64,000 bases of DNA from the NCBI GenBank assembly GCA_005879795.1, contig VBKJ01000135.1:286-64285 (forward strand). Direction: 5' to 3'. Below, one piece after another: positions 35,689 to 45,466 of the stretch (the stretch's first letter is position 1; every line of letters begins with the position of its first letter). A program made the translations under genes and the position numbers. The notes beneath the pieces were generated by a model that saw nothing but the letters and a program-made list of their open reading frames with translations, had not been told where the DNA came from and made no database searches. Source of the stretch: Deltaproteobacteria bacterium. Lineage in GTDB: Bacteria > Desulfobacterota > Binatia > DP-6.

Positions 35689-36015
35689 CTACGCCACGAC
35701 CGAGCTGATCGCCTTGACGAGCTGCGCCTTCGGGACGGCGCCGACGATCTGCTCCTTCACCTGCCCGCTGTGGAAGACGATCAGGTTCGGGATGCCCCGC
35801 ACGCCGTAGCGCGCCGGCGTCTTCGGGTTGTCGTCGACGTTCATCTTCATGACCTTCAGCTTCCCGGCGTACTCGCGCGCGATCTCCTCGACCACGGGCG
35901 CGATGGCGCGGCAGGGCGCGCACCAGGGAGCCCAGAAATCGATGAGCACGGGCGTGGGGCTCGCGAGCACTTCGCGATCGAACGAGTCGTCAGCAACCGG
36001 TAGCACGTCGGCCAT
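35689..36015 (-). CDS. trxA: Thioredoxin
   Basis: DFWAPWCAPC, GVRGIP. Confidence 0.95.
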   Translation of the reverse strand: MADVLPVADDSFDREVLASPTPVLIDFWAPWCAPCRAIAPVVEEIAREYAGKLKVMKMNVDDNPKTPARYGVRGIPNLIVFHSGQVKEQIVGAVPKAQLVKAISSVVA

Positions 36016-36070
36016 TCGTCCTCCTTACCAGCGCGCACGATAGCAAACGGGTCGGGGTGACGGAAGGACG

Positions 36071-36646
36071 TCAGCCGGTCTGGTGATGGAAGGGACCGAA
36101 GCGCACGACGCTCGTCTTGCCGGCCTTCACCTCGACCCGCCGCTCGACCGTGTCGAAGCCGCGCGCGCGCACCGCGAGCGTGTGCTCGCCGTACGGGACC
36201 GCGAGCCAGCGCCGGTCGAGGTTCTCGGCCGTCAGCCAGAAGCGCCCGTCGAGATCCACCGCGGCGCCGTCGGGCACGCCCTGGAGCTGCACGAGGCCGT
36301 AGCTGCCGCGCTCGGTCTCCTCGCGCGACGGCGGCGCGCTCTCCGCGCGCGCCTCGCCTTCCGCTTCCGGGGGCGGCTCGCTCCAGCCCTCGACGTCCGG
36401 CGGGGGGTACACCGGATAGGGCAGGTAGTAGGGGTAGTCGTACGGGAAGAAGAACGGGTCGAAGAAGAAGCCGCCGTCGATGAAGACGCGGGAGCCGGGG
36501 TGCGAGTGGAAGAACGGGCGGTGTCCGACGAAGGGCCCATGATGGAAAGACGGCCCATGATGGAAAGACCCCCGCGCGTGCGCGTCCGTGCTCCCGGCGA
36601 GGCCGAGCGCGAGGCCGAGCGCGGCGACGGCCAGCGGGCGCTTCAC
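36071..36646 (-). CDS. Secreted protein with His/Phe/Tyr/Pro-rich N-terminus and PEGA-like C-terminal domain
   Basis: Signal peptide ending AHA, SFHHGP tandem repeat, C-terminal PDGAAVDLDG...GEHTLAVRARGF. Confidence 0.7.
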   Translation of the reverse strand: MKRPLAVAALGLALGLAGSTDAHARGSFHHGPSFHHGPFVGHRPFFHSHPGSRVFIDGGFFFDPFFFPYDYPYYLPYPVYPPPDVEGWSEPPPEAEGEARAESAPPSREETERGSYGLVQLQGVPDGAAVDLDGRFWLTAENLDRRWLAVPYGEHTLAVRARGFDTVERRVEVKAGKTSVVRFGPFHHQTG

Positions 36647-37029
36647 CGCCGCTCCTCGCCTCCCCGCGGCGGTGGGGGCGGCGCCTCGACGCCGCCCTTG
36701 GCGCCGTAGCTGACCGTGCGGCTGAACACTTCGAGCGGCGCCACGAGGATGTAGTAGACGCCGTATCGTACCACCAGCCCCGCCGCGTAGAAGGGCGCGT
36801 AGATCACGCGCATGACCGGCGAGAGGGGCGGGGGCGGCGCGACCCGCGGCGGAGGAGGGTAATAGTAGCGCGGCGGGGGAGGAACGGGCCGGGCGACCGG
36901 CGGAGGTGGCGGCGGATAGGGCGGCGCGGGCTCCGGGTCGGCGGCCAGCAGGCCGCTCGGCACGACGAGCAGCAGGGCGAGCGCGCCGGCCACGCTGCGA
37001 CGCCTGAGCGATGCCTGGGCGCCCGTCAT
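36643..37029 (-). CDS. Small secreted proline-rich hypothetical protein
   Basis: Signal-like N-terminus, poly-Pro with YYYP, conserved-looking IYAPFYAAGL..PLEVFSRT helix; 4-nt overlap with the next gene. Confidence 0.6.
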   Translation of the reverse strand: MTGAQASLRRRSVAGALALLLVVPSGLLAADPEPAPPYPPPPPPVARPVPPPPRYYYPPPPRVAPPPPLSPVMRVIYAPFYAAGLVVRYGVYYILVAPLEVFSRTVSYGAKGGVEAPPPPPRGGEERR

Positions 37030-37030
37030 G

Positions 37031-37276
37031 TCACCTGAGGTGCGGCGGCACCCACACCCGGTAGGGCCGTCCCCACGGGTCGTAGCGCCATTCCCACTGG
37101 CCGGGCACCCATCCCGGCGGGGGGACCTCGTAGGCGGGGTACGGTACCGCGTACGGATAGTAGTAGGGATAGGGGTAGGCCGGGAAGCCGACGGCGCCGC
37201 CGACGAAGACATGGACACGGGCGCTGGCCGGCCGTGCGGAGCCCAGGAGGAGCACGCCCAGCAGGGCGGCCGCCAT
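37031..37276 (-). CDS. Small secreted Tyr/Pro/Trp-rich protein (YXWGXW-like)
   Basis: Signal peptide ending ASA, YPYPYYYPY, PPGWVPGQWEW...VWVPPH. Confidence 0.65.
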   Translation of the reverse strand: MAAALLGVLLLGSARPASARVHVFVGGAVGFPAYPYPYYYPYAVPYPAYEVPPPGWVPGQWEWRYDPWGRPYRVWVPPHLR

Positions 37277-37359
37277 CACGCCCGCGCGCCGCCAGCAGTT
37301 CCTCCCGGCTGTCACGCGCGGCCGCAACACGCGGGCGGCATCGGAGTTACGCGGGCGGC

Positions 37360-37385
37360 CTGCCGAGGAGGGGAGTCGAACCCCT
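37360..37385 (-). repeat. 26 bp duplicate of the tRNA-Leu 3' end (att site)
   Basis: CTGCCGAGGAGGGGAGTCGAACCCCT, identical to 43685..43710. Confidence 0.92.
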
Positions 37386-37666
37386 CGAGAGTGAATTCCG
37401 TCAGGGCAACCGTCAGGAAGGGGCGTCATCGGGCACGAATTGTGCCCACCGGGCACAATTTGCAAGACGCCGGGGGGAGAGGGGAACACCCTTGTGTACG
37501 AGTCGCGCGACGCCCTTCGCGCGCCACACGCTCGGCGCCGGATGAGCGGCCTCGAGGCCGGCGACCCAAGCGCGGGGGCACGGGGGATGCCGAGCTCCTC
37601 GGAGGACGCACGCCTCGGTCGCCCGCGCCGTGCCGGACTCGGGGGACTCCCGCCCGCCGTGCCGGC

Positions 37667-37849
37667 CTACTGCTCGAGCTCGTCCCGGAACGCGCCGCTC
37701 GGCGAGCACTCGGGACGCGTGAGGTCGACGGACGCGGCCGGGAGCGTCGGCGGCGTCGGGAAGCTCACCTTCTTGAACTTGAACAGGCGGAGCAGCGGGT
37801 CGGCGTTCGCGTCGCGCTTGGTGAGCGCGGGCAGATCGAAGCGCGTCTC
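37667..37849 (-). pseudogene. 3' remnant of a phosphoesterase/phospholipase C family gene
   Basis: ETRFDLPALTKRDANADPLLRLF resembles the family's C-terminal motif; the rest of the gene is absent. Confidence 0.55.
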
Positions 37850-37950
37850 GCGAGCGCGATGGCGAGCAGGGCGATGTTGCGCATGAGCACGCTTACCACG
37901 GCTCGCTACGCGCCCGTCAAACATATCTTCAGACGGTATCGAGCCCGGCC

Positions 37951-39447
37951 TCACTCCCCGATGTGCGAGGCGGCGGCCCAGTCCTTCATGAGCTTCACGT
38001 CGGGCCTGAGGAGGAAACCGGTCCTGATCGCCCGCCTGGCCGCCTTGTCGTACGCGACGACGAAGGCGCGGTGGTTCGGGTAGAGCGACGCCAGAGTCGT
38101 CGCGTCGAAGGGCGTGGTGGTGCCGAACAGCCGGCAGAAGAGCGAGCCGCTCTGCTCGCCGGTGAACGTGGCGATCGGCACGTCGACCTGCGGCGTGCGG
38201 ATGCCGCCGCGGGCGTTGCCGTGGCTGTCGCGCATGATCGCGACGGGCGGGCCGGCCGCGACGGCCAACCGCGGCGCCGAGCGGGGCGGCCGCCCGGTCC
38301 GCACCCAGCGGTTCAAGGCCGCGAAGGCGGCATTCACGACGAAATGATGCGGTCCGGAGTTGATCGGGCTGCCGCACATGATGAGGCCGGGGATGGGCGA
38401 CGCGGTGATCAGGAGATCGACGATGCCGGGCGAGTTGCCGAGATCCCCCGGGCCCGTGACGAGCGTGTACGTGTCCGCGTGCGCCGTCCCGGCCACTTCC
38501 CAGAGGCGAAAGTGCCGGCTGTCGTCCTGCCGAGCCGAGAAGTATGCGAGGAACGTCAGGTCCGTCTCCGTCTCGAGCGCGAGCACCGGCACGTCGACGT
38601 CGCTCCGGATCGCCGCCGCGCCCGGCGCCGGGATCGCCGGCTGCGGCGCCTCGGACAGCGGAGTGCCGAAGGCCCCACGGCTGTGCACCAGGTAGCCGTC
38701 GTAGACGTGCGCGATCGGATGAATCGCGTCGATGTAGTCGACCAGCCGGAAGGCCGACTGCGAATCGCCGGAGGCGATCAGTCTCTTCACCTTGAGCCCG
38801 CCGAGGGGGCTCGGGCCCGCCGGCTGTCGGATCGCCTGCCCCGCCTGCGAGAAGATGTCGTACGAGAAGCTGTCTCCCGGGTGGTTCAGCGAGCCGTACC
38901 GCGCCGGATTCACCGCCTTGAGCGGCAGGCTCACGACGCCGACCAGGGCGGTACCGCCTTCTACGCCGACGCGCTGCGCGGAGACGCCCATCCACGCGAA
39001 GCCGTCACGGATGAGCTCGGTGTGGGCCGTCGTCCAGTCGACCGCGGTGTCGAGACCGCCGCTCACGTTGAGCCACTCGACGACGACCGTGCCGTTGAAC
39101 TTCTTCGGGCTCGTCGGCCGGTAGACGAGGATGCGCGTCTTGTAGGGCGTCATCTCGCCGGGCGCCACCGTCCACTTGCCGTCGGTGCCGAGCGGCCCGA
39201 CGTTCGTGTAGGCGCTCGCCGTGCCGGATATGAAGAACTCTTCCGCCATGTGTCCGACCTGGGAGAGGTCGAACCCCGTCCCGAAGACGAACGGGACCCC
39301 GGGGCCGGTGATCGGCCCTTCGATCGTCGGGCTCGGCACCGCCGCCGACGCGCGCGGTATGACTGCCGAGCAGTGGAGCAGGGCGGTGAGCGCCAGAACG
39401 ACCACGCCGAGCCGGGTTCGATTCACGTGAGCGGACGTGCGCGACAT
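37951..39447 (-). CDS. Secreted alpha/beta-hydrolase-domain protein
   Basis: Signal peptide, FNGTVVVEWLNVSGG, GDSQSA, WEVAGTAHAD, GGIRTP. Own ATG at 39447 but in frame with the upstream PadR remnant. Confidence 0.8.
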   Translation of the reverse strand: MSRTSAHVNRTRLGVVVLALTALLHCSAVIPRASAAVPSPTIEGPITGPGVPFVFGTGFDLSQVGHMAEEFFISGTASAYTNVGPLGTDGKWTVAPGEMTPYKTRILVYRPTSPKKFNGTVVVEWLNVSGGLDTAVDWTTAHTELIRDGFAWMGVSAQRVGVEGGTALVGVVSLPLKAVNPARYGSLNHPGDSFSYDIFSQAGQAIRQPAGPSPLGGLKVKRLIASGDSQSAFRLVDYIDAIHPIAHVYDGYLVHSRGAFGTPLSEAPQPAIPAPGAAAIRSDVDVPVLALETETDLTFLAYFSARQDDSRHFRLWEVAGTAHADTYTLVTGPGDLGNSPGIVDLLITASPIPGLIMCGSPINSGPHHFVVNAAFAALNRWVRTGRPPRSAPRLAVAAGPPVAIMRDSHGNARGGIRTPQVDVPIATFTGEQSGSLFCRLFGTTTPFDATTLASLYPNHRAFVVAYDKAARRAIRTGFLLRPDVKLMKDWAAASHIGE

Positions 39448-39519
39448 CGACGATCCTCCTCGGTCGTTCTCGATGGTGCTTTCGACGGGGCCCTCTCGCC
39501 GTGAGTACGACGGGTTGGC

Positions 39520-39705
39520 CGCTGCGGAGACGAAGCCCTTCGCTTCGAGTCGGTCGAGTGTCGCGTAGATCGCACCGAAGGAGTAGTCGCGCCGCGTGCG
39601 GTCCTTGATGGCGCGGTGGATCGTGACGCCGTAGGCGTCGCCGTGGGTCTGGAGAACCGCGGCGAGAACGATCTGCTCGAAGCCGCTCAGATAGTCGCGT
39701 GCCAT
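39520..39705 (-). pseudogene. Truncated PadR-family regulator, fused in frame to the hydrolase
   Basis: MARDYLSGFEQIVLAAV...AYGVTIHRAI...GAIYATLDRLEAKGFVS; the C-terminal wing is missing and there is no stop. 3' boundary approximate. Confidence 0.75.
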
Positions 39706-40172
39706 GAGCAATCTCTGCACTGTAGGGAAAGAGAGATCAAGGCGGTTCGGCAGGGTCGGGTAGGTCAGGGGGGTAGCTCGAGGGGCTGCTCCCTCGCGCT
39801 GGGCGCCAGCCGGGATGCGTCTCATCCGGCTGGCAGCCAGGCCAGTGCTGGTCGCCACCGCCCGCGCCGAGCCGCGGGTTTACCGCAGCCCCGACCGCGG
39901 CGTTCCGCCGGGCGCTCTCGGCCGCGGCCCGTCATCGCGTGCAAATCGGACCGAGGCCAGAAGACTTCGAGAGCGCGGTTCGCGAGGCGCTGCCCCTCGC
40001 GCACAGCCCGGCGGCGCGCCACCTGCCGGGCTTCCTGCCGGCACGGCGGGACTGAGCGAGCCCGCTTTGTGCGGTGTCCGGAATGTGCAGGGAACGGCCC
40101 GGCATGAGCCGCGGTCGAGCCGGCCCCGTTCGAAGCCCGACCCCCCGCGGTCTCGGAAGCGCCGTCGGCCGC

Positions 40173-42941
40173 CTACGGCGAGACCGCGAAAGCGCCCGCC
40201 AGCGGCAGGTCGCGCGACGACGGCCCGACCTCGACCGTGTACGCGATCGGCTCGACGACGAGTGCGCCTGCGCCCGCGTCCCAGTACGCGAGGTCTGGTG
40301 CCCGCACCTCGAACGGGACCGTGCGGGTCTCGCCGGGCTCGAGGTGGACCCGGGCGAACGCCTTGAGATCACGCACCGCACGGTCGACGCGCGAGCCCCT
40401 GTAGCCGACGTAGAGCTGCGCAACCTCGTCGCCTGCGACGGGGCCCGTGTTCGTCACGTCGGCGGTCACGCGCACGCGGCCCCACGGTGAGGCGGTCGCA
40501 GGTGTGATCGCGAGGTTCGAATAGCGGAACGTCGTGTAGGCGAGCCCGAAGCCGAAGGGGAAGAGCGGGGCGGTGTCGTTCCGGTCGAGGTAACGGTAGC
40601 CGTGGAAGTAGCCGTACTGGACCGCGGGGCTCGTGTCGTCGAACGGCGGGAGGTCGCTCTCCGCGCGCGGGAAGGTGACCGGCAGCTTGCCGGACGGATT
40701 CACGTCGCCGAAGAGCACCTCGGCGATCGCCGTCCCGCCGGCCTCGCCGGGATACCAGGCCATCAGCACGGCGGCCACCTGGTCGAGCCAGGGCATCAGG
40801 AGTGCCCCGCTCCCCTCGAGGACGACGAGGGTTCGAGGGTTCGCTGCCGCCACTGCCGCGACGAGCGCATCCTGGTCGCGCGGCAGGGCCAGCGACGGGC
40901 GGTCGCCGATCGTGATCAGTCCCTCGCCCTCGTCCTGGAACGTGAGCCCGACGACGACCACGGCCGCGTCCGCCGCCGCGATCAGCGCCAGATCGGCGGG
41001 GGAGGGTGAGCTCGTGTCGACGTAGGCGACCGTCACGCCGCCGGCGCGCGCGCGGATGCCGGCGAGCGGCGACACGGCAGAGGCGGGAACGACGAGGCTG
41101 CTCCCGTGGTCCCCGAGGTCCGCCATCGCGGCGAGCGGCCCGACGACCACGAGCGAGCGCGCGCGCGCCGCGTCGAGGGGCAGCGCCCCGGCTTCGTTGC
41201 GGAGCAGCACGATCGACTCGCGGGCCGCCTGGAGGGCGAGCGCCACGTGTGCGGGGGTCTCGACCTGGGTCGGGTCCACCTTCGGCGGGTCGGAATCCAG
41301 GCGGAAGCAGAGCTGTACGCGCAGGGTGCGACGCACGGCATCGTCGATCGTCGTCAGGCGCACCTGGCCGGCCGTCACGGCATCGGCGAGCGGCTTGCCG
41401 AAGTAGCTGGGGGCCGGCATCTCGACGTCGAGCCCCGCCTCCACCGCGGGCACCGTGCTGCGCGTTCCGAGGACCCAATCGGACTCGACGAAACCCTGGA
41501 AGCCCCAGTCGCCGTCGAGCACCTCGCGCAGCAGGTGGGTGTTCTCGCTGCAGTGCGCGCCGTTCACCTGGTTGTATGCCGCCATGACGGCGCCCGCGTG
41601 CCCCTCCTGCACGGCACGGCGGAAGTGTGGGAGAAAGACCTCGCGTAGGGACCGCTCGTCGACCGCGACGTCGACGGTGAAGCGGGTATCCTCGATGCTA
41701 TTGAGCGCGTAGTGCTTGGGGTTCGCGATCACGTGGCGCTGTGCACCGCGCACGAATGCGACCCCCATGCGGCCCAGGTGGACGGTGTCCTCGCCGTAGG
41801 TCTCCTGCGCCCGCCCCCAGCGCGGGTGGCGCAGGATGTTCACGACGGGCGCAAGGATCATGCTCCCGCCCTTCGCGCGGGTCTCGACGCCGATCGCCTC
41901 GCCGACGCGCTCCTCGAGCGCCTCGTCCCACGTCGCGCCCCTCGCCATGCCGACCGGGAAGCACGTCGCGTTCCCGCTGACGGCGCTCACGCCGCGCGCC
42001 CCGTCGAGCATCCCGATGCCGGGGATGCGCAGGCGCGCAACCGCCGTGATGCGACCTGCGAGACCCGGGGTGAAGAGGCTGACGCCGTGCATCTGATCGA
42101 GCTTCTCGGCGAGGGTCATGCGGGCGAGGAGTCGATCGATGCGACGCTCGACCGTCGCGCCCGTATCGCCGCAGAAGCCCGGGTTGGGGCGCTCGGCCGC
42201 GAGCGCGTCGTCGGCGGCCGCGCCGGCCACGCGGAGAAGGCACTGCGCGAGCGTGCCGCCGTCCGCCGGCGCGTCGCACGGGACGCCGAAGTGGGCCGCG
42301 CCGAGCGCCGCGCCCCCGCAGCGGGCGGCAATGCGGGCCGCCGCCCGGCTCCCGAGCCGCGCGAGCCGGGCGGCGAGCGGCGGGTATTCGGCACAATCGC
42401 TCCCGGCCGCGAGGGCGCGCGGCGGATGCCGGTGGCATGCCGTGAGGAGGTGAACGCGGCCGAGGAGCACCTCGCGCGTGCGGCCCGTCGCCTCGAGCTG
42501 GCACGCCCGTGCTGCCTCGGGCAGTGCGGCGGGCGCGGCGTCGGAGACGGCCAGCACCGCGTCTGCGTCGGCATCGTGGGTGCCGACGAGGCAGCCAGCG
42601 ACCGCGTCCGGGGTGCGGGCGTCGGCGCAGTCCCCACCCAGGTGGAGCGCCGCCGCGGCCTCGACCGAGCACGCGCGGCCGAGGCGGCGGCGCGCGGCCC
42701 GCGCCGCGGCCGCCCGGCGCCGCGCAATCGCTGGGTCGGCGAGGCAGTCGGTGCTCGCGGCCCGCGCCCCGGTCGCCACCGCGCGCGCACACGCGGCAAG
42801 CAGCCCCGTCGAGCGAGCGAGCAGGCGCGGTCCCACCCTGGCGAGCGCCCGCTCGCACCGCCGTTCGGCGGGTCCAGTGGCGCGCGCGGCGCCGGTCGCG
42901 AGCAGGATGACGAGGAGTCCCGCCGCCCCGCACGTAGGCAT
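40173..42941 (-). CDS. Secreted GH3 beta-glucosidase with Cys-rich N-terminal extension and Fn3-like C-terminus
   Basis: GRAQETYGED, KHY, ESDW nucleophile, WYPGE, PLFPFGFGLAYT, EVAQLY. Start refined to 42941. Confidence 0.92.
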   Translation of the reverse strand: MPTCGAAGLLVILLATGAARATGPAERRCERALARVGPRLLARSTGLLAACARAVATGARAASTDCLADPAIARRRAAAARAARRRLGRACSVEAAAALHLGGDCADARTPDAVAGCLVGTHDADADAVLAVSDAAPAALPEAARACQLEATGRTREVLLGRVHLLTACHRHPPRALAAGSDCAEYPPLAARLARLGSRAAARIAARCGGAALGAAHFGVPCDAPADGGTLAQCLLRVAGAAADDALAAERPNPGFCGDTGATVERRIDRLLARMTLAEKLDQMHGVSLFTPGLAGRITAVARLRIPGIGMLDGARGVSAVSGNATCFPVGMARGATWDEALEERVGEAIGVETRAKGGSMILAPVVNILRHPRWGRAQETYGEDTVHLGRMGVAFVRGAQRHVIANPKHYALNSIEDTRFTVDVAVDERSLREVFLPHFRRAVQEGHAGAVMAAYNQVNGAHCSENTHLLREVLDGDWGFQGFVESDWVLGTRSTVPAVEAGLDVEMPAPSYFGKPLADAVTAGQVRLTTIDDAVRRTLRVQLCFRLDSDPPKVDPTQVETPAHVALALQAARESIVLLRNEAGALPLDAARARSLVVVGPLAAMADLGDHGSSLVVPASAVSPLAGIRARAGGVTVAYVDTSSPSPADLALIAAADAAVVVVGLTFQDEGEGLITIGDRPSLALPRDQDALVAAVAAANPRTLVVLEGSGALLMPWLDQVAAVLMAWYPGEAGGTAIAEVLFGDVNPSGKLPVTFPRAESDLPPFDDTSPAVQYGYFHGYRYLDRNDTAPLFPFGFGLAYTTFRYSNLAITPATASPWGRVRVTADVTNTGPVAGDEVAQLYVGYRGSRVDRAVRDLKAFARVHLEPGETRTVPFEVRAPDLAYWDAGAGALVVEPIAYTVEVGPSSRDLPLAGAFAVSP

Positions 42942-43685
42942 GGCGCGACTCGCGCGCGGCCCGACGACAGTTCGCTCGAGCGTCACGGCAGCGTGCGGCT
43001 CTCGCTCGTCGTCGGCCCTCCGAGATCTCCGGCACCGAACGACGCCGGTCGGAACGCGAAGGCATCGTCCGTGATCGTCTTCGGCTGGACCGCGGTGGCC
43101 GCGAGCGACAAGGGCTCCCTCCGATTACGTCTGCCTACCCCAATGAGATCCCCTACCTCAAGGGAAATGCCACCAGTGCGGTGCGACCGGGCCAGGGCCA
43201 CCCGTGGCGACGTGGTCAGTCGGCGTACCCGAGCGCAAGCAGTCTGTGGCGCTGCTCACCGTCGTCGCGTCGTCCATCCGCCCCCCTCCATGACCGCCAA
43301 CCCAGGCGGTTCGCGCGCCAGCGTCATCGCTCGACACGCTCATCTGGGAAATGGCTAAAGCGTGTGGCCGACGAGGTCAGTGTGCCGTTCCCGGAAGACA
43401 TCCACTTCCAAGGTGAGCCGGAGCAGAAGTAGCCCGCGCAGTGAGGGAGACGGTCCGGGGACTACCCTGCGGCATGCCCGCCCTCCGTGCGACGTGAGGT
43501 TCCCCGATGGACGCGACCATGACAAATCCGAGAGGCCCGCGTCGCTGTGAACGCGCTGGAGGCTGCTCTCTCAAGGCCGGTGCCGCAAGAGCATCAGCGG
43601 GCGGTGCAGGCGCTCAGCCTTGCCATAGAGCCCGAGGCTGAGCCGACACGGGTGTTCGCATGATCGTAAGTGGCTGGATCCTGAC

Positions 43686-43769
43686 TGCCGAGGAGGGGAG
43701 TCGAACCCCTACACCCTCGCGGGCGGAGGATTTTGAGTCCTCTGCGTCTGCCAGTTCCGCCACCTCGGC
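43686..43769 (-). tRNA. trnL: tRNA-Leu (CAA)
   Basis: GCCGAGG acceptor stem pairs with CCTCGGC, anticodon arm GAGGA-CTCAAAA-TCCTC, long variable arm, T-arm AGGGG-TTCGACT-CCCCT; CCA not encoded. Confidence 0.97.
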
Positions 43770-43858
43770 GCGCGCGCCAGCGTAGCCGCTTCGCGCGGCA
43801 CCCGCCAGCACGGGACCATCGAGGCGCTGCCGAGCGCCCGGCGCACCGCGCCTGACGG

Positions 43859-44563
43859 CTACGGCTTGGCGGGCGCACCCCCCTGGTCCCGGCGGTCGAC
43901 CGCCAGCGCGCGCGGCACCACCGCGGGTGCGGGGCGCGCGCGGATCTTGCGGGCGGCTTCCGCTGCCAGGCTGCGCAAGAGCGGGTCCTGCGCGTCCCTG
44001 GCCAGGACCTCGAGCGACGGCAGGGCGGCCGGATCACCGATGTCGCCGAGCGCGAAGATCGCATTGCCGCGCACCGCGGGGTCGACGTCGCGCGAGAGGA
44101 AATCCATGATCGGTCCGGTCGCGCGCGTGTCGCCGATCCTGCCCAGGCTGGCGAGGATGCGTTGCTTGGTGCCGAGGTCGGTGTCGCGCATGAAGAGCTG
44201 CTGGACGAGAAGCGGAGTCGCGTCCTTGGCCTTGATGTGGCCGAGCGTGTCGATCGCCTTGATGCGCACGCGCATATCGGGGTCACTCGCCGCCGCGACC
44301 AGGTATTCGGTCGCCTTCGGATCGTCGAGCTGCCCCAGGGTGCGGATCGCGTCGAGGCGCTCCTCGACGTCCTCGCTCTTCAGCTTGCGCGCGCTGTCAC
44401 TCAGCTTCTGGCTGTTCTCCGGCTTGCGGTAGCGGTCGCGGAGGTGGCCCCGGGGAGAGTCCTCCTGACCGAAGGGCACGATGGCGTCCTGCGCGAACGC
44501 GAGCGCCGGGAGAAGGACGGTGGCGAGTGCGAGCCGGGCGCTCGGCCGCGCGCGGGGCGACAT
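43859..44563 (-). CDS. HEAT/PBS-lyase-like repeat protein with signal peptide
   Basis: Repeats RLDAIRTLGQL, RIKAIDTLGHI, RGNAIFALGDI. Start refined to 44563. Confidence 0.8.
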   Translation of the reverse strand: MSPRARPSARLALATVLLPALAFAQDAIVPFGQEDSPRGHLRDRYRKPENSQKLSDSARKLKSEDVEERLDAIRTLGQLDDPKATEYLVAAASDPDMRVRIKAIDTLGHIKAKDATPLLVQQLFMRDTDLGTKQRILASLGRIGDTRATGPIMDFLSRDVDPAVRGNAIFALGDIGDPAALPSLEVLARDAQDPLLRSLAAEAARKIRARPAPAVVPRALAVDRRDQGGAPAKP

Positions 44564-44683
44564 CGCGCGGAGTCTCGCGCAGGCCGGCGCGGATTGCAAC
44601 CGACCGCGGACCACGCGCAGAAAAATGGCTTCCGCCCGCCGGAGGTTCTTGCTAGAAGCGGCGCGCACCGAAGGCACGGGGCG

Positions 44684-45466
44684 ATGGGACGAGCGACGAC
44701 CAGCCGGCGGGCGACCCTGGACGGCCTCGCGCGCATCCTCGATGCGGGGGCGCCCGAGGAGCTCTTCACCGGGCCGCAGGAAGAGGCGCACTTGCTATAC
44801 GGGCTCCTCGTCGATGCGGCCCGGGGGCGCAGGTCGGCGCACTACTGGGAGATCTGCCGCACGGCCCGCCGCCGGGGCGTCGTGCCCGAGTACGTCGCGG
44901 ATCGCGCCGCGGTCCTGCTCGCCACCATCGAGGACCGGCGGCGGACGGACCTCTACCGCATCCTCGGCGTGCCCGCGCTGTCCTCCGGGGAGACCATCCG
45001 CGAGCACTGGCTCGAGCTCGCCAAGCGGCTTCATCCGGACGTGGGCGGCGACGGCGCGCGGTTCCGCCGGGCGCAGCAGGCCTATGAGGTCCTGCGCGAC
45101 CCCGCGCGCCGCGCCGAGTACGAGCGCTTCTGGCTGCGTGCGCTCGGCCCGTTCGAACGCGTGGCGCCGCGCGAGGACCTCCCGCCGCTGGAGGTGATGG
45201 GGGCGACGGTTCTGCCCGTGCGGCGTCCGCCGGTCGAGGAGCCGCTGCACGCGGCGCCGCCCTCGGTCACGGAGCCCGCCCTGGCGCCGGTCGCAGGGGC
45301 CGACGTGACCGGCGTCCTCGCGCGCATCACGGCGCTCCTCGCCCCGATCGGCGCTGCCGATCTGGAACGCCTGCGGGGCGAGGTGGCGCGCGCGATCACC
45401 GACCTCGAGACCGTGCGCGACGAGCTCCGCGCGCTGGCGAGCCTCAAGCTGGCGCTCGACGCGTAG
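44684..45466 (+). CDS. J-domain protein with central J domain
   Basis: DLYRILGV...LAKRLHPDV...QAYEVLRDPARRAEYE. Start refined to 44684. Confidence 0.88.
   Translation: MGRATTSRRATLDGLARILDAGAPEELFTGPQEEAHLLYGLLVDAARGRRSAHYWEICRTARRRGVVPEYVADRAAVLLATIEDRRRTDLYRILGVPALSSGETIREHWLELAKRLHPDVGGDGARFRRAQQAYEVLRDPARRAEYERFWLRALGPFERVAPREDLPPLEVMGATVLPVRRPPVEEPLHAAPPSVTEPALAPVAGADVTGVLARITALLAPIGAADLERLRGEVARAITDLETVRDELRALASLKLALDA

Follow-up and report, generated by a model that had tools for sequence, protein, structure and literature searches.

A probable CIME-like island remnant at the 3' end of tRNA-Leu(CAA) in an uncultured soil Binatia-like bacterium

Introduction

An exact repeat of a tRNA 3' end, lying downstream of an intact tRNA gene, is the usual footprint of insertion by a tyrosine integrase. 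Islands bounded in this way, including P4-like prophages, pathogenicity and metabolic islands, ICEs and IMEs, share with the locus analyzed here the same target, a regenerated tRNA, a bounding repeat, a variable presence among relatives, and integrases in other occupants of the same site. They differ from it in that the present segment is devoid of any integrase, excisionase, transfer or phage gene, shows no compositional contrast with its host, and measures only 6.3 kb. CIMEs are decayed ICEs or IMEs that retain attL and attR but lack integration and transfer genes (PMC5704250). The att-like flanking repeats, the lack of integration and transfer genes and the use of the site for further integrations are also found here. 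However, CIMEs have been described in Firmicutes, whereas the present host is an uncultured soil Binatia-like bacterium; its att sites and its descent from a conjugative element are putative, and no tandem partner element accompanies them. Lastly, relatives of this bacterium carry integrase-bearing islands at tRNA-Leu(CAA) (G010, G015, G020 and G024), with the same tRNA and conserved flanks. The islands of G010, G003 and G006 display the same repeat class as the present one, covering tRNA positions about 60-84. In contrast with the present island, those of the relatives still encode integrases, and no similarity to its ends or cargo was found in them.

The locus lies within a window of 64,000 nucleotides, the whole stretch of contig VBKJ01000135.1 that was analyzed and to which all positions refer. 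A scan of genome contigs with RodA returned distant relatives only (60% or less) and served to place the organism near Binatia. The segment at this locus is probably a decayed, integrase-less, CIME-like island fixed in the species, the remnant of an element that a tyrosine integrase inserted into the tRNA-Leu(CAA) 3' end. A decayed island without integrase at a tRNA is an ordinary, well-known kind of genomic island.

The target tRNA and its repeat

43686-43769, minus strand: intact tRNA-Leu(CAA), the integration target (ARAGORN and Rfam RF00005)
43685-43710, unstranded: repeat copy at the tRNA, attL side, an exact match to the distal copy
37360-37385, unstranded: repeat copy far from the tRNA, attR side, the displaced or duplicated tRNA 3' end
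37386-43684, unstranded: inserted segment of 6,299 bp, absent from sister organisms

The target is the only tRNA-Leu(CAA) of the assembly and scores 54.6 bits with Rfam, for a gathering score of 29. The two copies of the 26-nt direct repeat (CTGCCGAGGAGGGGAGTCGAACCCCT) are 100% identical and comprise the final 25 tRNA bases (T-arm, 3' acceptor strand and discriminator, as placed by alignment) plus one additional base. The attR-side copy precedes the ATG at 37276 by 83 bp. The genome contains no further copy of the 26-mer, and the search for similar sites returned no third one genome-wide with up to 6 mismatches and no additional one between 36 and 45 kb with up to 7 mismatches. At this G+C, the probability of a chance 26-mer match is estimated at about 1e-9 for the window. 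The repeat reported in the preliminary description is thus exact and bounds the segment, and the tRNA is intact according to both ARAGORN and Rfam.

Empty sites and other occupants in relatives

37031-37276, minus strand: 81-residue Pro/Tyr-rich exported protein (the 37276 gene), left flank, native and outside the island
43859-44791, minus strand: HEAT-repeat protein, right flank, native, adjoining the tRNA family-wide

The flanking genes follow a family-wide order, RodA-Trx-PEGA-P128-P81-(variable)-tRNA-HEAT, with variable DNA at exactly this point, the tRNA-to-RodA distance ranging from 1.8 to 18 kb at the family level. The shortest distance is that of G008 (1.8 kb); in G017, G021 and G005 it amounts to 2.5-2.9 kb including an extra gene. 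Homologues of the 81-residue protein gene adjoin the tRNA in the empty-site contigs presented below; in G004, G005, G017, G018 and G021, 0.6-2.2 kb separate the two.

The preliminary description proposed to look in related genomes for an empty site joining tRNA-Leu to the 37276 gene. Such a site, precise to the base, is present in four metagenome contigs from sister organisms (L079, L085, L086 and L088), in each of which the HEAT gene, tRNA-Leu and the 81-residue protein gene occur together with the 26-mer in one copy. The sequences matching 36002-37385 and 43683-43815 of the window are contiguous in all four, and the tRNA 3' end directly joins the homologue of window positions 37359-37255. 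Since the sister species lack the island and the present species has it fixed, its arrival postdates the species split, although in principle the empty sites of the sister species could come from precise excision there and not from insertion here. A further contig, L072, was set aside as possibly chimeric: its flanks are 98.5% identical to those of the window, but different DNA follows the tRNA, a patchwork resembling contigs C247, C266 and C261 of the genome under study.

The preliminary description had named as adverse to its reading the case that all relatives carry the same segment. The segment is not shared by relatives: the tRNA-to-RodA distance varies from 1.8 to 18 kb, and the cargo homologues in the relatives' genomes sit at other loci, as ordinary chromosomal genes. 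At the same tRNA, the relatives hold unrelated inserts, four of which carry tyrosine integrases. A 449-residue integrase of G010 (contig C164) overlaps with the 3' end of the tRNA. The repeat of this island belongs to the class found here (tRNA positions 61-84), while the islands of G015, G020 and G024 have repeats of 52-55 nt. With at least five different occupants plus the empty state in one genus-level group, tRNA-Leu(CAA) is a family-wide integration hotspot. The genome under study itself has integrases adjoining tRNA-Ala, tRNA-Asn and tRNA-Gly, and a fragment of tRNA-Leu(UAA) with a decayed integrase next to it. The empty sites, the unique repeat, the relatives' integrases at this tRNA and these tRNA-adjacent integrases together support the reading of the repeat as a tyrosine-integrase footprint.

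Support for the assembled junctions

The genome is a MAG of 280 contigs and 4.1 Mb, and the possibility of an assembly or binning artefact, in which a chimeric contig would have been joined through the tRNA-like 26-mer, must be weighed. The tRNA sequence is common to many organisms in these soils, as reflected by a depth of 75-245 over the tRNA as compared with 5-10 alongside, and many of the relatives' contigs end at this tRNA. Against such a chimera, each of the 12 soil runs examined contains the island, and its distal junction is spanned by independent assemblies in 11 of them, the twelfth ending before the junction. Single unitigs, originating from several independent soil studies, cross this junction with 0-1 differences (37176-38074, 37136-37879, 37115-38208 and 37115-38872). 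Other unitigs join the island to the 3' part of the tRNA (43081-43712), and flank and island are found together in the same runs. The artefact reading, also raised in the preliminary description, has thus been tested and effectively refuted, and we regard it as extremely improbable.

Content of the inserted segment

37667-37909, minus strand: 3' remnant of a PF04185 phosphoesterase gene, about its last 75 codons plus the stop
37951-39444, minus strand: secreted Abhydrolase_10 protein (PF20091, E 1e-154)
39445-39705, minus strand: truncated PadR-family gene (PF03551, 31.3 bits, profile positions 4-55 of 75)
40173-42941, minus strand: secreted GH3 glycosidase with an intact frame (PF00933, PF01915 and PF14310)
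42942-43684, unstranded: tRNA-proximal stretch of 743 bp without recognizable gene or Pfam match

The segment comprises the GH3 gene, the Abhydrolase_10 gene fused to the PadR piece, the PF04185 remnant, and ~1.5 kb without recognizable gene. The cargo announced in the preliminary description is confirmed, the two hydrolases having signal-peptide-like N-termini (as judged by eye from the translations) and the gene fragments being two in number. The GH3 protein possesses an N-terminal Cys-rich domain of about 250 residues and shows 62-73% identity to the copies that family relatives carry at other loci. The Abhydrolase_10 gene, present in a single copy in the genome, has its own Shine-Dalgarno sequence (GAGGAGGA), ATG and signal peptide; a few metatranscriptome contigs match it, which is weak evidence of its transcription. 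The PadR piece retains only the N-terminal winged helix and reads in frame, with no stop, into the Abhydrolase_10 gene, and gene callers fuse the two into a 584-residue product (P0003). The phosphoesterase remnant shares 52% amino acid identity with residues 372-438 of the PF04185 phosphoesterase on contig C267 of the same genome. At the nucleotide level, an identity of 77% over 135 nt was obtained for the remnant. Neither a PadR nor a phosphoesterase gene was found beside the relatives' Abhydrolase_10 homologues.

Regarding the signal-peptide codons of the Abhydrolase_10 gene, they contain a 19-nt look-alike of the repeat (39360-39378). It was considered as an internal degenerate att copy, such as would mark the accretion of two elements, and was rejected as a chance match since it can not be extended.

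The G+C of the island is about 0.72 (0.73 for the genome), and the GC3 of its coding parts, 0.90, is like that of host genes, so that the coding parts show no contrast with the host in composition or codon usage. Only the non-coding ends of the island exhibit a G+C drop, to 0.66-0.69; at the tRNA-proximal end, these values come from the 300-nt windows at ~42900-43800. In all reading frames, the stretch at 42942-43684 returned no Pfam match at E<=1; this tRNA-proximal position is occupied by the integrase in several relatives. Rfam analysis of the island reported no non-coding RNA apart from the tRNA, and comparison of its ends with the relatives' islands revealed no homology beyond a 21-nt palindrome. 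The nearest homologues of the cargo are found in the same bacterial family, as genes of the chromosome (57-74% identity). Together with the host-like composition, this points to a relative as the donor, or to cargo that was shuffled in later.

Integrase search and present-day mobility

A PF00589 scan of the genome, with stops read through, gave no match on this contig, a six-frame Pfam scan of the island at E<=1 identified no integrase or remnant thereof, and tblastn with the G010 and G015 integrases returned no match in the island beyond their overlap with the tRNA. The preliminary description saw no integrase, and these searches did not uncover even a remnant of one. Since no trace of it survives, the type of the original element can not be named. 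The further claim of the preliminary description, that of an old, eroded island, is borne out as to the erosion, given the truncated genes and the missing integrase; as to age, the data place the island after the species split.

Could the island still be mobilized as a CIME, its attL and attR being functional if a cognate integrase were supplied by an incoming element at the same tRNA (accretion) or from elsewhere in the genome? The attL-side and attR-side repeats do not differ at a single base, integrase-bearing elements repeatedly use this site in relatives, and CIMEs by definition keep attL and attR, CIME-ICE tandems having been seen to transfer (PMC5704250). Nevertheless, tblastn in the same genome retrieved only a 94-residue remnant on contig C159 with the G010 integrase as query, and a 35%-identical gene beside tRNA-Ala plus a pseudogene with that of G015. 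The island lacks the arm-type motifs that occur in the relatives' elements (GACCACGTTC, twice). The contigs of the 12 soil runs, from which rare variants drop out so that they weigh little here, contain neither a joint skipping 37386-43710 nor a circular junction; with no attP or attB form found, nothing points to mobility at present. We hold mobilization to be highly unlikely.

Formation and significance

In the preferred reading, that of a decayed CIME-like island, an integrative element would have entered the 3' end of tRNA-Leu(CAA) through site-specific recombination by a tyrosine integrase, a step that we infer from the scar and from the relatives. Recombination of attP with the region from the T-arm to the 3' end of the tRNA would restore an intact tRNA and leave the second 26-nt copy at the far end. 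Deletion would presumably later have removed the integrase along with any genes for excision or transfer, in an order of decay events that is our reconstruction. Internal deletions or recombination may then have produced the present mosaic of the GH3 gene, the PadR stump fused to the Abhydrolase_10 gene, and the phosphoesterase stump. The island is no longer self-mobile and has become fixed in the species. Judging from the families to which they belong, both intact exported hydrolases were most likely kept for extracellular glycan or ester breakdown in soil.

The significance of the locus mostly concerns annotation. The public 584-residue call merges the PadR stump with the Abhydrolase_10 protein, and this gene model can be corrected. 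In addition, tRNA-Leu(CAA) is documented as a much-used hotspot for integration within a soil lineage that is uncultured, a decayed island can reach fixation while holding only extracellular catabolic genes, and the locus provides a clean positive control for att-scar logic.

The GH3 gene in other contexts

Copies of the GH3 gene with 93-96% nucleotide identity occur in three other contexts (contigs L170-L172, which are short and do not cover the region upstream of GH3). Their downstream neighbors encode a PF04185 phosphoesterase, a DUF1697 protein and an unknown protein, and in each context the similarity ends at the stop codon, give or take a few bases. This changing downstream neighbor of near-identical GH3 copies is the one mild oddity of the locus. 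The phosphoesterase gene adjoining GH3 in L170 is the orthologue (91% nucleotide identity) of a gene on contig C231 of the genome under study. An integrase pseudogene and an att fragment of tRNA-Leu(UAA) lie at a distance of 7 kb from this C231 gene. An insertion of the Abhydrolase_10 gene into an ancestral GH3-phosphoesterase pair of the L170 kind was considered and rejected, because the stump in the island resembles the C267-type paralogue and not the C231/L170 type.

These copies bear on whether the scar and the cargo have separate histories, an element having left the att duplication and the hydrolases, never carried by it, having arrived later by recombination, homologous or illegitimate, with other islands or with loci on the chromosome. 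The near-identical GH3 copies whose similarity ends near the stop, the link of the L170 phosphoesterase to the tRNA-Leu(UAA) att fragment, the internal rearrangement attested by the PadR and phosphoesterase stumps, and the ordinary chromosomal location of the relatives' Abhydrolase_10 and GH3 homologues all agree with it. However, modular exchange of cargo among related islands, which is normal island evolution, gives the same pattern, nothing inside the island, such as a degenerate att copy, marks a seam, and L170-L172 are silent upstream of GH3. We deem separate histories unlikely.

A broader proposal, which we hold to be very doubtful, is that secreted-hydrolase genes behave as single-gene cassettes in these soil Binatia-like bacteria, moving between tRNA-Leu (CAA/UAA) islands and chromosomal loci with breakpoints at gene boundaries and with no need for a resident integrase. 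The hints for such cassettes are the occurrence of GH3 (93-96% nucleotide identity) with four downstream neighbors and a similarity ending at the stop codon, and the orthology of one of these neighbors to a gene beside the other tRNA-Leu att remnant.

Repeat and target tRNA

The window corresponds to bases 286-64285 of contig C114 from a MAG of 280 contigs (4.1 Mb, 73% G+C), whose RodA protein finds its best named matches in "Candidatus Binatia" MAGs (54-60% identity). ARAGORN reports a sole tRNA in the window, a tRNA-Leu(CAA) (minus strand, 43686-43769), in agreement with Rfam (54.6 bits), and this is the single gene of its kind in the whole assembly. The 26-mer CTGCCGAGGAGGGGAGTCGAACCCCT is present as direct copies at 43685-43710 and 37360-37385; no further copy exists in the whole genome, nor any near-match with up to 6 mismatches genome-wide or up to 7 within 36-45 kb. 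Alignment to the tRNA indicates that the repeat spans the T-arm, the 3' acceptor strand, and the discriminator plus one extra base, the first T-stem base being precisely where identity begins. A chance origin of such a repeat of the tRNA 3' end is impossible. The exact repeat and the intact neighboring tRNA announced in the preliminary description are both borne out.

The island sequence is present in 20 soil metagenome runs from many studies, with its flank in largely the same runs. Coverage of the region was examined with the contigs of 12 runs, and unitigs cross the distal junction in 11 of them, the twelfth (X13) stopping at 37342. Single unitigs span this junction with 0-1 differences (37176-38074, 37136-37879, 37115-38208, and 37115-38872), while others lead from the island into the 3' part of the tRNA (43081-43712). 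Depth reaches 75-245 over the tRNA versus 5-10 beside it, and unitigs break there because the tRNA is common to many other organisms. The artifact explanation therefore fails, and the island structure is real. None of the contigs from the 12 runs skips the island or joins its ends. Excision has left no sign in them, bearing in mind that contigs conceal rare variants; the island appears fixed in this species.

Island cargo

The segment between the repeats (37386-43684, 6,299 bp) contains two real genes according to codon-position G+C, both on the tRNA strand:

40173-42941, tRNA strand, GH3 glycosidase (PF00933, PF01915, PF14310)
ATG at 39444, tRNA strand, Abhydrolase_10 protein (PF20091, E 1e-154)

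The GH3 N-terminus exhibits a signal-peptide-like start followed by a Cys-rich region of ~250 residues. The Shine-Dalgarno motif GAGGAGGA precedes the Abhydrolase_10 ATG, and the codons after this start specify a typical signal peptide. An open frame runs into this gene from upstream of its ATG, comprising 87 codons of a PadR winged helix (31.3 bits); of the 75 profile positions only 4-55 are matched, which leaves PadR without its C-terminal part. Of note, public gene calls join this stump and the hydrolase across 39436-39705 into a 584-residue "fusion" (protein cluster P0003, 29 member sequences). A phosphoesterase gene is represented by its last part only, 42 bases past the Abhydrolase_10 stop, with 52% identity to residues 372-438 of a PF04185 open frame (449 residues) on contig C267 of the same genome. 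Pfam searches in all frames (E<=1) return no match for the 743 bp beside the tRNA, the 467 bp separating GH3 from the PadR stump, or the 280 bp at the distal end. A PF00589 scan of the whole contig, stops read through, is likewise negative, and tblastn with two integrases from relatives' tRNA-Leu(CAA) islands matches the island only in a short overlap with the tRNA. The cargo had been described as two secreted hydrolases plus gene fragments, devoid of an integrase, and given these genes, stumps, and empty integrase searches, that account is accurate.

A palindrome, AATTGTGCCC-ACCG-GGCACAATT, lies at 37438-37460, ~50-75 nt inside the distal end, and may form a hairpin or bind a protein. A 20/21-nt match to it, TTGTGCCCGGCGGGCACAA, is found 75-100 nt past the tRNA in unrelated inserts of two relatives' loci (L074, L077).

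The locus in family relatives

The order RodA, thioredoxin, PEGA-domain protein, 128-residue protein, 81-residue protein, tRNA-Leu(CAA), and HEAT-repeat protein is conserved across 24 family genomes. The 81-residue neighbor (start at 37276) is an exported Pro/Tyr-rich protein; together with the 128-residue protein, also small, Pro/Tyr-rich, and exported, it occupies 36643-37276 upstream of the PEGA-domain gene, and neither returns a Pfam match. The tRNA-to-RodA distance differs greatly among genomes, from 1.8 kb (G008) through 2.5-2.9 kb (G017, G021, G005) and 3.9 kb (G004) to 8.8-18 kb (G009, G014, G022, G024, G003), with 8.1 kb in the window. Several inserts carry at their far ends partial copies of the tRNA 3' end, of two classes:

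tRNA positions ~60-84, 23-26 nt, short class (window, G003, G006, G010)
tRNA positions ~30-84, 52-55 nt, long class (G002, G015, G020, G024)

Four relatives bearing such copies possess a tyrosine integrase at the site. The 449-residue integrase of G010 and the 445-residue integrase of G015 read into the tRNA 3' end and overlap it, while those of G020 and G024 are placed at the distal end. Integrase-less remnants recur at this tRNA: G003 harbors, directly past it, an islet of 1.4 kb (L042, contig C8, 14830-16355) whose G+C is visibly lower and whose limits are marked by a 23-nt copy of the tRNA 3' end, and G006 has a 7.6 kb insert with a 24-nt repeat.

Empty sites and other occupants

Searching metagenome contigs with the HEAT protein yielded 18 loci, of which 17 belong to closer relatives (72-91% amino acid identity) and one matches at 62%. 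In L079, L085, L086, and L088, the homologue of the 81-residue gene directly follows the tRNA, and in the last three the remaining left flank is present beyond it. The window's left flank aligns to these contigs up to 37385 and its right flank from 43683, both alignments overlapping on one 26-mer copy; the 83 bp from the repeat to the ATG at 37276 can be aligned base by base with their tRNA-to-gene spacer. The site in these four contigs is a precise attB, the very join of tRNA and 37276 gene that the preliminary description proposed to look for in relatives. Further contigs of the group contain unrelated DNA at this place. L073 and L078 display a STAS, ECF-sigma, and ABC-transporter set past the tRNA, L083 and L076 an element featuring GACCACGTTC in tandem (likewise in G018), and L074 and L077 another insert type. 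The tRNA-Leu(CAA) site is a hotspot with several occupants, the 6.3 kb segment among them.

The tandem GACCACGTTC is located 65-90 nt downstream of the tRNA (L083:4932-4952, L076:8024-8044, L031 of G018, contig C14:4-24, and L073:3425). It resembles arm-type binding sites for the integrase of one element family, and is absent from the 6.3 kb island. In another metagenome locus (L072:2069-5318), a HEAT and tRNA flank 98.5% identical to the window precedes a dockerin-like phosphoesterase gene past the tRNA, and pieces further on are 81-97% identical to contigs C247, C266, and C261 of the MAG; L072 is either chimeric or stems from a conspecific strain with another occupant at the site.

Proposed history

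The most likely history, which we regard as quite probable, comprises three events. tRNA-Leu(CAA) would first have recombined with an integrative element whose tyrosine integrase was of the T-arm/3'-end class, the element would then have lost this integrase along with its mobility genes, and later deletions would have left two intact exported hydrolase genes, perhaps of selective value, and two gene stumps. The island belongs to a well-known kind, the closest named category being the CIME, a decayed island in which att sites are kept and integration and transfer genes lost, the att function being putative here. The scar, the empty sites, the hotspot, the stumps, and the missing integrase are established, while the recombination mechanism, the succession of events, and the benefit of the hydrolases are inferred. 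The eroded tRNA island of the preliminary description stands in observation and interpretation, its qualification as "old" being unproven.

Origin of the cargo

All genera of the family possess Abhydrolase_10 homologues (57-70% identity), located elsewhere than at this tRNA, and about half of the genera have GH3 homologues (62-73%), those closest by RodA identity not being among them. In a set of 5.8 billion proteins, the best Abhydrolase_10 match past the species' own cluster reaches 74%. It follows that the donor was a relative or that the genes were reshuffled inside the lineage, in agreement with the island's lack of compositional contrast with its host.

GH3 copies with 93-96% nucleotide identity are found on three short contigs (L170, L171, L172), with downstream neighbors that all differ: a PF04185 phosphoesterase, a DUF1697 protein, and an unknown protein. 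In all three, similarity to the window is lost no more than a few bases from the stop codon (window 40169-40175, L170:2067, L171:2149, L172:1674). Modular cargo exchange among related islands is the simplest reading of this pattern, which is the only feature left partly unexplained and does not alter the verdict on the island. The L170 phosphoesterase has a 91% nucleotide orthologue on contig C231 of the MAG. At a distance of 7 kb from that gene, C231 bears an integrase pseudogene and a 55-nt piece of the 3' part of tRNA-Leu(UAA), a tRNA that is nowhere intact in the assembly. This frameshifted tyrosine-integrase pseudogene (C231:30258-30839, outside the window) is 54% identical to the integrase of the G015 tRNA-Leu(CAA) island, and the adjoining tRNA fragment covers everything between anticodon loop and 3' terminus; together they form a second decayed att site.
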